A DNA stretch of 64,000 nt from Rhizodiscina lignyota. Its lineage: Eukaryota. The position numbers were made by a program, and so were the translations under genes. This document shows, piece by piece, positions 13,875 to 17,277 of the stretch; positions within the stretch are counted from its first letter, which is position 1, and every line of letters begins with the position of its first letter. The stretch spans positions 310,001 to 374,000 of the forward strand of contig ML978137.1 of assembly GCA_010015805.1 (NCBI GenBank), in the 5' to 3' direction. A model generated the notes under the pieces. The model was given only the letters and a program-made list of their open reading frames with translations. It had not been told where the DNA came from and made no database searches.

Positions 13875-15993
13875 ATGACTTCCTTCGCCGTCTTTCCTCC
13901 CACCATGCCTCCCCACGACTTCGACCTGTTCAGCACGTCGGGCGACAACTACCCTAACGACATGATGGCGACTACTCAAGCATTCGCCATGCCAAATTCT
14001 TTCTTCGAAAACCCATTCGCTGCCGCCATTTCTACTCTCGACTCATCCGCATCCATCTACGCGCCGCAAATGCCTCGCCCTGTCGACTTCATCCCCACCT
14101 CTCACGCAATGAAGCACAACTATACAAGGGACGTTACTCCTCCACCCGTATCACAATCCTACGAGAGCATACAACCACACCAGCAAGTCTCGACATCATC
14201 AGAGTCGAACAACTCAGTCCAGAGCTCATCATCCTCCACTCTTGCATCACCATCATTACGCGCCCAACAGCAGGTCCAGGCTCAGTATCAGCAGTCATGG
14301 GGACTGGGCCTTCCTCAGGGCGTTGTCCCACATGAGGGTTTCGTCAACTCGGCTTTCGAGCAGGATCTCGATAAGCAGCAGCCCGGTTGTGTGGGTGAGT
14401 CTTCATCAGTTTCTTCGTCACCGCAAAACACTCTTCTTTCTGCGCACTCTCCTCTCTCAGCAACGTCAGTCATTCAGCCTTTTGATCTCAATTTTGCCTG
14501 GGCTGGATCCTCGTACAACGCTGGAAGCGGGGAGAGCGGGTCTCAATTGAGTACTCCAAGGGCAATTCCAAGCCAGCCAGCCGCTGGCAGCCCTGCTTCT
14601 GGCGTTGAGGAGAGTGTCGCAAGATTCAAGAGTCCTAGCCCATCTTCATTCACATCGCCGTCGCAATCGCGAGTAGGCAATTTTTCTGCCGCTCGCCGCA
14701 ATTCCCTCTTGTCGAATCAAGTCTGGCCCACAACAACCACTCCGGAGTCACAGTCTCTCGTAACGTCACCAGAGTCATTCGTATCGTCATCTTTCTTCAA
14801 TCAAAGTAGTGGTCGTTTCATTCCTCCACTCGATTCTTATTGTTGGTTTCCATTTGCTACTACCAGTTCGGTTTTGGCTTTCGCATCATTGGTTGAAGAG
14901 CTTTCACTGACTTGATGATTGAGCAGACCCCTCTCTTATCAATCCCTTTGGTTCTCCTAGCCTCTACTCTTCCGCTACCTTCAACGCCCTTGGTGCAACA
15001 CACTCTCCTCGGCCTGTAGTTGATCATCCGCCATCACCCGCACCTTCTAATGCTTCGACCCGCAGCCATACCCAAAATTTCGCCGACTCGCGAAGATTCA
15101 AACATTCTGGAAGTCAATCGCCATATCTCCACAATTATGCCCACCAGCCGTATCCTCCTCAGCAGTACCCTGGACAGAGGAGGGCATCACAAGCCTCCAT
15201 CCATTCCCGACACTCAAACTCCAGCCCACGAAGCGGTAGTTTCGAGTTGGACGATGAGAGTGTCCAGCGTGGACTCTGCCCGATTCCGGACTGCGGCCGC
15301 GTCTTCAAGGACCTCAAAGCGCACATGCTGACCCACCAAAACGAGCGCCCTGAAAAGTGCCCAATCGTCACGTGCGAGTACCACGTGAAGGGCTTTGCCA
15401 GGAAGTACGACAAAAACCGACATACCCTTACGCATTACAAGGGTACGATGGTTTGTGGCTTCTGCCCCGGTAGCGGCTCTGCGGCCGAGAAGAGCTTCAA
15501 CCGCGCCGATGTGTTCAAGAGGCATCTCACCTCAGTCCATGGGGTCGAACAAACGCCGCCGAACAGCAGGAAGAAGTCACCGTCATCCTCCAAAAAGGGA
15601 TTCAGCGCAGTGGACAGCAAGCCAGGCACTTGCTCCACGTGCGGCGTCACCTTCACCAACGTGCAGGAGTTCTACGAGCACTTGGACGACTGCGTCATGC
15701 GCGTTGTCCAACAGACCGATCCGTGCGAGGCGATCAACCAGAAGAACCTGGGGTCTGTCCAGGACGACGCGCAGGTGCAGGAGACGCTCGACCGGCACAG
15801 TCTTCCGGCACAGGCCGACTACAGTGCAACGGACAACTACGAGGATGCCGACGAGGACGACGATTCAGAGGAGCAGGCCGACAACGACGACGCCAACGAC
15901 GAGACGTACGGCTCTCGCAACCCGCGTGCGGGTAAAGGCGCCATCAAGAGCCGCAAGACCGCGACGCAGGGTGCGAATGGCAATTCCAGTTGA
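13875..15993 (+). CDS. C2H2 zinc-finger transcription factor (three C2H2 plus one C2HC finger); form terminating at the first stop
   Basis: ATG 13875 (MTSFAVFPP). Exon to 14394, donor GTGAGT 14395, acceptor CAG ending 14926, giving GCVDPSLI across the junction. Fingers: CPIPDCGRVFKDLKAHMLTH, CPIVTCEYHVKGFARKYDKNRHTLTH, CGFC...FKRHLTSVH, CSTC...HLDDC. Acidic tail, then TGA 15991-15993. About 528 aa with the upstream donor. Confidence 0.92.
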
Positions 15994-16042
15994 CAATTAA
16001 CACATCCCCGGGGTGTCGGCGCTTCGCAGCACACCGGGGGTG
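15991..16042 (+). promoter_or_regulatory. Putative stop-codon readthrough signal: UGA-CAAUUA plus 3' stem-loop
   Basis: AGT TGA CAA TTA ACA, then a hairpin at 16003-16042: CATCCCC/GGGGGTG and GGTGT/ACACC stems capped by GC pairs. Confidence 0.75.
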
Positions 16043-16515
16043 GCATCACCAAATCTTCCTCGAGAGTGGCCTCGGGTGTGCGAGGCTCCTCCACAGCAGA
16101 CAACATCCGCCGCGGCCTGACGTACAGCAAGGGCGGCGTACCACTATCGCAGCCCATGTCTGGCCGCAAGAAGCGCAAGCACTATCCAGCCAGCTGGGGC
16201 TGCGCGACCGACAAGATGCGCATGAAGAAGCGCGTGCTCTGTGTCTACGACGGCCCGCGCCGTCTGTGGAAGGACGACATGATGCTCGACAGCGAGTTCG
16301 AGGTCCGCCTTCCCATGGTCAACCCGCATGACCCAACGGCCCGCAGCTACGTGACAGACCTTGACGTGCAGACACTTCGACGCGCGGAGGCCCTTCATGG
16401 CACCACGGAAGAGGACAGGGGAGAGTGGATCCCCGACAACATCTTGCCTGCTGACGGCGACTTTGTCGACGGCGGCATGCCCGCTGTCAGCGTCGCCCCA
16501 GCCGTGCTTGTTTGA
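15994..16515 (+). CDS. In-frame C-terminal extension (173 codons) of the C2H2 factor beyond the TGA
   Basis: Same frame as ORF 15247-15993 (15247 and 16066 are both 1 mod 3). No stop until TGA TGA at 16513-16518. Same GC3-rich codon usage as the finger exon. Encodes GLTYSKGGVPL...GRKKRKHYPASWGC...MRMKKRVLCVYDGPRRLWKDDMML...YVTDLDVQTLRRAE. Confidence 0.8.
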   Translation, partial: QLTHPRGVGASQHTGGGITKSSSRVASGVRGSSTADNIRRGLTYSKGGVPLSQPMSGRKKRKHYPASWGCATDKMRMKKRVLCVYDGPRRLWKDDMMLDSEFEVRLPMVNPHDPTARSYVTDLDVQTLRRAEALHGTTEEDRGEWIPDNILPADGDFVDGGMPAVSVAPAVLV

Positions 16516-17277
16516 TGAGACTGATTGTGCGAATGAGCCTGATGGCACTGTACTTTTAATTGTACCCTTCTTGTTTCTTCTTTTCAAAGCTTTGGCGGGA
16601 CCACTTTTGGCTTTTTCGAGCAGTTTTTGAGGACTGGGCCAGCCTCCTTTTTTTTTTTTCCTTCTTCTCTCTTTTATAATCTTCGATTCCAACGGAACAC
16701 TGCGATGAAAACCCTTCACAAAAAACTTTTCTTTTCTTTTTCTTCTATGGGAGGACGACAAATCATGAGTGGGATGACGGGACACTATTGAAAGGCTCTG
16801 ACGTCTAGCCTTCGATGCAGGCTTGCACAGCCTTGGGAATTACTAGCTGGAACGGCTATTGGAACTTTTGGGTCTCTTTGCTGAGCACTTTGAGCGAAAT
16901 GCCTTTGTACCCTAGCGAAAAGTCAAATGAATTTGATTTTTAATGCCTATTGTCCACGGTTACATTTTGTCGATGCATGTGAGAATCTAGCACAGCACAT
17001 TCCTGAGGGCTTCTGCTGTCTAAGACACGACACCCATTCCATCAACACGCAAAATGGTGTGGACGTGGAAGGGCGCCTGCTCGCAAGTTCGCTGTATCAC
17101 GTTCCTCGTCCACACTCAACCCAACGTGGAAGTTTCGAAGATACGAGAGTGCAATTGATCTAAACATATTATTCGCATTCGTATCTCGTCATAGTAACAC
17201 TTCAACTCCAGCGCTTGATGCCTCAGAGACAACTGCAGAACATATCGTTGAGAAAAAAAATGTCAAGTAACTTTTCT

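Follow-up and report, generated by a model that had tools for sequence, protein, structure and literature searches.

A probable leaky UGA ahead of a conserved C-terminal domain in a C2H2 zinc-finger gene of Rhizodiscina lignyota and related fungi

The stretch of Rhizodiscina lignyota DNA analysed here (GCA_010015805.1, contig ML978137.1, positions 310,001-374,000 of the forward strand; these 64,000 nt are called the window, and all positions are those of the window) carries a gene whose product matches the C2H2 zinc-finger profile PF00096 (zf-C2H2; 29.4 bits against a Pfam cut-off of 25.2, E 9.5e-07). Its reading frame is interrupted by an in-frame TGA and continues beyond it, and comparison with related sequences makes it very probable that the mRNA carries a programmed leaky UGA between a finger-plus-acidic region and a conserved C-terminal domain. 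The features concerned are the following.

14923-15990, + strand: zinc-finger open reading frame (ORF) up to the stop, in the same frame as the readthrough extension.
15277..15720, + strand: C2H2 zinc-finger block, the DNA-binding region; Pfam zf-C2H2 at residues 119-138 of the 14923 frame, near-invariant in homologues.
15991..15993, + strand: in-frame UGA, the proposed leaky stop; TGA at the matching site in 65 of 80 related loci.
15994..15999, + strand: CAATTA hexanucleotide, which fits CARYYA; each of the 53 distinct contexts has CAA-YYA here.
15994..16512, + strand: putative readthrough extension of 173 codons; an open frame, in frame with the fingers in 80 of 80 loci.
16003..16042, + strand: predicted RNA hairpin, proposed from folding and covariation, with the outer stem formed by 16003-16011 (CAUCCCCGG) and 16034-16042 (CCGGGGGUG).
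16108..16440, + strand: conserved C-terminal domain (RRGLTYSKGG ... KKRVLCVYDGPRRLWKDDMMLD ... YVTDLDVQTLRRAEALHG), with 29 invariant columns over 61 sequences.
16165..16179, + strand: RKKRK basic cluster, a candidate nuclear localisation signal, near-invariant in the alignment and encoded in the long form only.
16513..16518, + strand: TGA TGA, the two stops that close the long form, read from the sequence.

The sequence at 15982-16005 reads AAT TCC AGT TGA CAA TTA ACA CAT, with the TGA in frame at 15991-15993, and the zinc-finger frame stays open past it for 173 codons (15994-16512) until it ends at TGA TGA, while the alternative frames of the same segment contain 5 and 3 stops. The G+C content at third codon positions is 0.78 upstream of the TGA, 0.76 downstream and 0.37 past 16518. 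Joining GTGCGA (15971) to the CAG at 16029 would remove 59 nt and shift the frame; the only acceptors in phase with the two available donors end at 16084 or 16096, and the first in-frame ATG past the TGA, which encodes Met55 of the extension, is at 16156. The extension ends in AVLV, which lies outside the tripeptides that we take to define the peroxisomal targeting signal 1 (PTS1), namely SKL and its close variants. What a first-pass annotation of this DNA had read from the letters, that is TGA-CAATTA, the 173-codon frame, the frame-shifting 59-nt pair, the in-phase CAG at 16096 and the ATG at 16156, was correct throughout. The open downstream frame is far beyond chance and, as judged by homology, encodes a domain that is fused to the fingers in about 2000 homologues.

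A homologue search with the read-through frame, with X at the stop, returned 1976 homologues at E<=0.001, and the protein comparisons use the best 120 of these 1976, which by source label are mostly from Dothideomycetes and lichen-forming fungi. In a 20-row alignment including the window, 18 of the 19 homologues have fingers and C-terminal domain in one protein, and the exception (P0037) ends at the stop site; the long form is thus the normal protein of the family. The family layout consists of the fingers, a variable acidic or low-complexity linker and the conserved C-terminal domain (RKKRKxYPxSWG...KKRVLCVYDGxRRLWKDDMMLD...YVTDLDVQT..RAEALHG), and the TGA falls within the variable linker. 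The median ratio of nonsynonymous to synonymous substitution (dN/dS) is 0.042 upstream, in the fingers (70 codons, 448 pairs; 1564 saturated pairs excluded), and 0.137 downstream, in the C-terminal domain (50 codons, 700 pairs; 1125 saturated pairs excluded), so that both sides of the TGA are under purifying selection. A Pfam scan gave no match for the extension with a profile set from which PF28332 is absent; the protein database assigns PF28332 to nearly all of the 120 listed homologues. An AlphaFold2 model of the C-terminal domain built from 61 sequences is of low confidence (mean pLDDT 54, pTM 0.29), and a search of the ESM Atlas returned no usable match. The RKKRK cluster fits K-K/R-X-K/R, which we take to be the consensus of nuclear localisation signals.

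Among the matches listed, the closest homologues are P0037 (80% identity in the 20-row alignment) and P0051 (78% in the homologue search), both of them ORFs called without introns; P0037 ends ...SRKDNHSS and P0051 ends ...IRKPGS, where the window reads ...GNSS followed by the stop. P0037 is labelled as a protein of a bacterial metagenome-assembled genome (MAG), Terriglobus roseus, yet it corresponds to the fungal gene, translated straight across intron 1 up to the leaky stop; its contig is probably fungal and binned with a bacterium.

The stop and its surroundings were compared across 80 related loci found in a metagenome scan (52-69% identity; handles beginning with L). Fingers and C-terminal domain share one frame in all 80, despite a linker of variable length, and in 65 of them exactly one in-frame stop, TGA in every case, lies between the two. 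Together with the window the stop-bearing loci make up 53 distinct 93-nt contexts, in which T-G-A-C-A-A-Y-Y-A is invariant (53/53) and the flanks are variable. The YYA codon is TTA, CTA, TCA or CCA, so that the encoded residue is Leu, Ser or Pro while the third base is always A; the constraint therefore acts on the RNA bases rather than on the residues. This pattern corresponds exactly to the CAR-YYA consensus, as the motif is defined in passages of PMC3542737. The long frame closes with TGA in 47, TAA in 13 and TAG in 4 of the 64 stop-bearing rows, and CARYYA follows the terminal stop in 0 of 78; since UGA closes the long frame in 47 of 64 rows, and never in the leaky context, it still serves as a terminator and is not reassigned. 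Where the stop is missing, a sense codon takes its place: the stop-less loci L003 and L007 have GGT (Gly) at the site followed by CAA GTC, so that YYA is lost, and among the listed proteins P0072 and P0094 have Gly and P0090 has Leu. The first-pass annotation had taken the UGA, with its stop-CARYYA signal, for a case of programmed readthrough and had asked for a comparison of orthologues; with the in-frame TGA plus CAA-YYA in 65 of 80 loci and in 53 of 53 contexts, and with dN/dS of 0.04 upstream and 0.14 downstream, the conserved stop, context and frame strongly support that proposal at the level of sequence.

A GC-rich hairpin of 9 bp is predicted to begin 9 nt past the UGA. Within the otherwise variable linker, the HPRG codons after the stop and the later H-V/T-GGG block are unusually conserved, and it is their bases that pair (CAUCCCCGG with CCGGGGGUG). 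A 70-nt segment of the window folds with a minimum free energy of -27 kcal/mol (z -3.3; 1 of 200 shuffles was as good). The hairpin alignment comprises 43 of 49 distinct contexts, L020, L025 and L033 having been excluded for lack of the arms and L029, L059 and L069 as near-copies of rows that were kept; on these 43 rows RNAalifold by itself recovered 7 of the 9 pairs. For the nine pairs the share of paired cells is 95.1%, compared with 86.2% in shuffles, and 37 cells are changed on both sides, compared with 10.6; neither value was reached in any of 500 shuffles. Compensatory changes occur in five pairs (for instance C-G to U-A in 12 rows), and control structures slid by 1-3 columns are only 51-66% paired. 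A matching hairpin lies 8-9 nt past the UGA in representatives of five other clades (L008, L043, L060, L057 and L037) and is absent from the stop-less L003. In the small clade of L020, L025 and L033, TGA-CAA-YYA is kept and the HPRGV...HVGGG stretch is replaced; L020 (3712-3781) has a different hairpin of 8 bp (GGUGGUGC/GCACCACC) at an equal distance from the stop, the folding energy of which is unremarkable (z -0.6).

Evidence on the mature mRNA comes from contigs of relatives. L016 is 99.8-100% identical to the genomic loci L014 and L015 except for two gaps, one of 108 nt with the ends GTAAGC..TAG and one of 294 nt with the ends GTAAGT..CAG, and past the second gap it continues as an unbroken block of 2065 nt with the fingers, the TGA (L016:1791) and the C-terminal domain. 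Four other contigs (L004, L013, L002 and L017), about 94% identical to the genomic L012 and with introns removed, all keep the TGA. We infer the transcript origin of these contigs from the missing GT-AG introns; a search for poly(A) tails at the contig ends found none. Since these five spliced contigs retain the TGA, the stop is present in the mature mRNA of these relatives, in line with the first-pass annotation, which saw no convincing frame-preserving intron that removes it. Run X1, which contains all sampled words, yielded 0 contigs. Reads from X4 and X13 gave short pieces only, from more distant relatives; two joints, 16018>16162 (X4, GC..CT) and 16328>16591 (X12, TG..GC), were considered as introns and rejected, their ends not being splice-like, and were taken to reflect divergent relatives. 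A further GT-AG intron, about 105 nt long, lies in the 5' untranslated region of the gene in relatives (L014:1777-1884; L012:1505-1607) and is spliced out in the transcript contigs.

The long protein could be made without readthrough if the stop were taken out of some of the mRNA. A rare alternatively spliced isoform lacking a frame-preserving intron such as 15971-16096 would do so: the window offers in-phase GT...AG pairs (15971 or 15989 to 16084 or 16096), TTAAC directly past the stop looks like a branch point, public gene models place introns across the site, and a minor isoform would escape assembled contigs. However, six contigs from which upstream introns have been removed retain the stop, and conserved intron bounds were not found around it, no GT being invariant within 30 nt upstream in the 53 contexts; in 26 of these the second Y is C (TCA or CCA), at odds with the consensus for a branch point. 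Removal of such an intron would moreover take out the QH-GGG codons, which stay in frame in relatives. All 80 loci preserve the frame although the linker differs in length between them, a regularity that introns do not demand, and splicing would have no use for an invariant CAA-YYA or for a covarying hairpin that starts 9 nt past the stop; we regard the splicing explanation as improbable. A slim chance is left to A-to-I editing of UGA to UGG under some condition, for example during sexual development, a type of stop correction known from some filamentous ascomycetes. An editing enzyme might make use of the nearby hairpin, and the transcript contigs may derive from vegetative material only, but the spliced contigs read TGA, the stop lies outside the hairpin, the invariant CAA-YYA would be left unexplained, and fungal editing generally prefers U before the edited A, where this gene has G.

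Two further explanations were considered. If the UGA were a true terminator, the downstream domain would have to be translated alone by reinitiation, by internal entry or from a separate transcript, and the ATG at 16156 in the window could serve such a purpose. The fact that relatives lack Met there (e.g. GSGRKKRK, VGKGRRKRK), that each of the 80 loci keeps the frame of the fingers although independent initiation would not depend on it, and that stop-less relatives and the wider family make a single fused protein, renders separate translation very unlikely. Nothing beyond the stop itself speaks for a strain-specific nonsense allele or an error of assembly, with the gene a pseudogene, or for a UGA read as selenocysteine. 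The identical TGA in 65 of 80 relatives and the dN/dS of 0.14 downstream contradict the former; with respect to the latter, stop-less relatives have Gly (L003, L007, P0094, P0072) or Leu (P0090) at the site and not Cys, and an Rfam search of 15800-17000, including the selenocysteine insertion sequence (SECIS), found no family at E<=1. To our knowledge, Dikarya lack the selenocysteine machinery. The probability of either is negligible.

The sizes of the products of the proposed leaky stop depend on intron 1, for which, together with the start codon, the following features are proposed.

13875..13877, + strand: putative start codon (MTSFAVFPPTMPPHDFDLF...), placed by homology; the N-terminus resembles that of homologues, e.g. 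P0037 (MTSFAAYPHAMPPHDFDLF).
14395..14926, + strand: putative intron 1, long form, GTGAGT...CAG, 532 nt, placed by homology; its removal keeps the frame and joins GCV|DPSLINPF.
14842..14926, + strand: putative intron 1, short form, GTTGGT...CAG, 85 nt, placed by homology; its removal keeps the frame and joins PPLDSY|YPSLINPF.
14924-14926, + strand: shared acceptor of intron 1, CAG, used with either 5' splice site (14395 GTGAGT or 14842 GTTGGT).

With the long intron removed, the predicted products are 528 amino acids (aa) for the short protein and 702 aa for the readthrough protein; with the short intron removed they are 677 and 851 aa. The approximate sizes of 528 and 702 aa given in the first-pass annotation thus stand for the long form of intron 1 and fail for the short form. 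Both forms have counterparts in relatives: compared with the genomic L012, a GTGAGT..TAG stretch of 537 nt is missing from L004 and L013, and a GTCGGT..TAG stretch of 110 nt, which ends at the acceptor of the 537-nt stretch, is missing from L002 and L017. Since the transcript contigs of relatives show both forms, the alternative splicing of intron 1 is probably conserved. Many related loci use the long form. The choice of the 5' splice site would give a protein with or without a Ser-rich middle region of 149 residues. The alternative 5' splice site and the hairpin are additions to what the first-pass annotation had described.

We propose that most ribosomes stop at 15991-15993 and release the short protein, of 528 or 677 aa according to the 5' splice site of intron 1, while a fraction would decode the UGA with a near-cognate tRNA, usually one for Trp, Cys or Arg, and continue for 173 codons, giving the long protein of 702 or 851 aa. 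The signal would have two parts, the CAA-YYA directly 3' of the UGA, of the 'type I' known from tobacco mosaic virus (TMV), and the GC-rich 9-bp hairpin that begins 9 nt past the stop, a spacing typical of readthrough-stimulating structures. Only the long form would carry the RKKRK cluster and the conserved C-terminal domain; our best guess is that RKKRK directs nuclear import and that readthrough would thereby set the amount of the complete nuclear regulator.

A more far-reaching idea, which we offer tentatively and consider rather doubtful, is that the leaky UGA is more than a source of two isoforms and forms a regulated gate older than the split of Dothideomycetes and Lecanoromycetes, the share of readthrough deciding the amount of active nuclear regulator. 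RKKRK, the one strong candidate for nuclear import, and the conserved C-terminal domain are both encoded past the stop. In such a gate the module of CAA-YYA and hairpin would set the share, which termination-factor activity, stress or tRNA supply could modulate, and the short form might be a cytoplasmic or a competing species. If this were true, a transcription programme would be coupled directly to the state of translation termination.

Several points count against the proposed readthrough, or at least against the weight given to parts of the evidence. Readthrough itself is deduced, for every species, from the comparison of sequences, the mRNA evidence on the stop is that of relatives' contigs, and the gene model of the window is built by homology. 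Assembled transcript contigs show the major form only, which leaves room for a rare spliced isoform. A long contig about 90% identical to the window (X12 record 2), possibly RNA, runs unbroken over 15078-16304 across the site, as judged by the extent of its match. The loci of the metagenome scan are non-independent samples of species; 15 of the 80 have no stop, so that the gene works without it there, and L020, L025 and L033 have TGA-CAA-YYA without the canonical stem. As for the hairpin, its arms are coding sequence (HPRG, H-V/T-GGG), so that conservation at the peptide level could contribute, and the stem was first spotted by eye in the very sequences on which it was tested, which favours it over the slid controls.

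A quick, unrooted maximum-likelihood tree, built on 108 rows that comprise 72 loci of known state and 36 named proteins as anchors, places the stop-bearing loci in four clades. The first groups with Trematosphaeria, Neocucurbitaria and Pyrenophora (Pleosporales), the second, which includes the window, with Aulographum, Venturia and Tothia (Aulographales/Venturiales), the third with Hortaea, Meristemomyces and Teratosphaeria (Mycosphaerellales), and the fourth with proteins of Pleopsidium, Psora and Teloschistaceae (Lecanoromycetes). The distribution of the stop over this tree requires a minimum of 4 state changes, compared with 13.9 for shuffled states, and none of 500 shuffles was as low. The stop thus appears to be conserved across two classes of Pezizomycotina, the class of each locus being assigned by its grouping with named proteins. 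The simplest reading is one old origin followed by several losses, to Gly or Leu codons, gain and loss not being formally separable on an unrooted tree. The only match among GTDB genomes (L081:3001-3459) lies on a contig of 1.1 Mb whose title names a Gammaproteobacteria MAG and covers the finger region only (69%, residues 3-156); the C-terminal domain was not found in the available stretch, which ends at the match, and L081, which was left out of the comparisons, is either a paralogue or a mis-binned eukaryotic contig.

Both the mechanism, programmed readthrough, and the types of signal are already known, and the view that a 174-aa domain on a transcription factor would be a different kind of system was overstated. 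According to passages of PMC3542737, CARYYA promotes readthrough of both UGA and UAG, and structures on the 3' side usually start about 8 nt past the stop; a portion of PMC4132726 describes a similar motif, CARNBA, as active in yeast, and about 15% readthrough for UGA-CARYYA in a mammalian reporter. The leaky stop of the TMV replicase shares with the present gene the CAA-UUA after the stop, all six bases of which are constrained, and the addition of a large domain to a fraction of the product (PMC3542737, in part). It differs in belonging to a plant virus and not to a cellular fungal gene, to which the conserved hairpin 9 nt downstream is an addition, and the natural viral cases covered in the same passages are mostly UAG, whereas the fungal gene has UGA. 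The nearest viral parallel, in a table of that source, is the benyvirus UAG-CAA-UUA with a compact stem-loop (PMC3542737). Type II viral readthrough (alphaviruses, tobraviruses, coltivirus; UGA-CGG/CUA), as far as it is treated in the sources used, shares the UGA and a stem-loop at nearly equal spacing (about 8 nt), but has CGG or CUA after the UGA, in contrast to CAA in 53 of 53 fungal contexts.

Among cellular genes, the cryptic peroxisomal isoforms of fungi (Ustilago maydis Pgk1 and Tpi1) likewise come from UGA readthrough that yields two isoforms from one mRNA; in the portions of PMC4207609 and PMC10688622 that describe them, they are short, PTS1-ended extensions on metabolic enzymes behind UGA-CU(A). 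The present gene differs from them in its 173 codons ending in AVLV, which is unlike the PTS1 tripeptides, in encoding a DNA-binding protein, and in its CAA-YYA with a hairpin. In animal transcription factors (Drosophila Traffic jam; POU/Oct), which belong to another kingdom and other gene families, readthrough adds a C-terminal part and tunes function (parts of PMC8417969 and 10.1101/2020.12.04.411694). Plant eRF1-1 is a cellular gene with a TMV-like readthrough context, CARYYA, and differs in that its readthrough is coupled to nonsense-mediated decay and senses the level of release factor in an autoregulatory manner (PMC5397192, in part). The literature searched, which lay mostly outside subscription journals and excluded supplements, held no report of readthrough in this gene family, in Dothideomycetes or in Lecanoromycetes. 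Unlike the short PTS1 tags of the described fungal cases, the proposed readthrough would add a conserved domain of 173 residues to a DNA-binding protein by means of a TMV hexanucleotide and a covarying hairpin. The gene may be an ancient natural test bed for the cooperation of a primary-sequence signal and a structure in fungal readthrough, and the stop-less relatives make the function of the stop testable by codon swap.

The public gene models bear the marks of the stop, as the first-pass annotation had expected in supposing that gene predictors would hide it. Motifs of the finger end and of the C-terminal domain were both matched in 99 of the best 120 proteins, and the residues after the stop (Q-[LSP]...) are kept only in P0090, which has Leu; the other 98 join the two sides at many different points. 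In Hortaea werneckii, which presumably carries duplicated copies, the junctions read KSRKAGAGNSR|QHVGGG, KSRKAG|QHVGGG, KSRKSGVSG|QHVGGG and TYGNR|QHVGGG. Such varied junctions, judged from the proteins and not from those genomes, fit predicted introns placed to dodge a stop. They point to an annotation problem, the models in many genomes being truncated at the stop or bridged by inconsistent and probably invented junctions.

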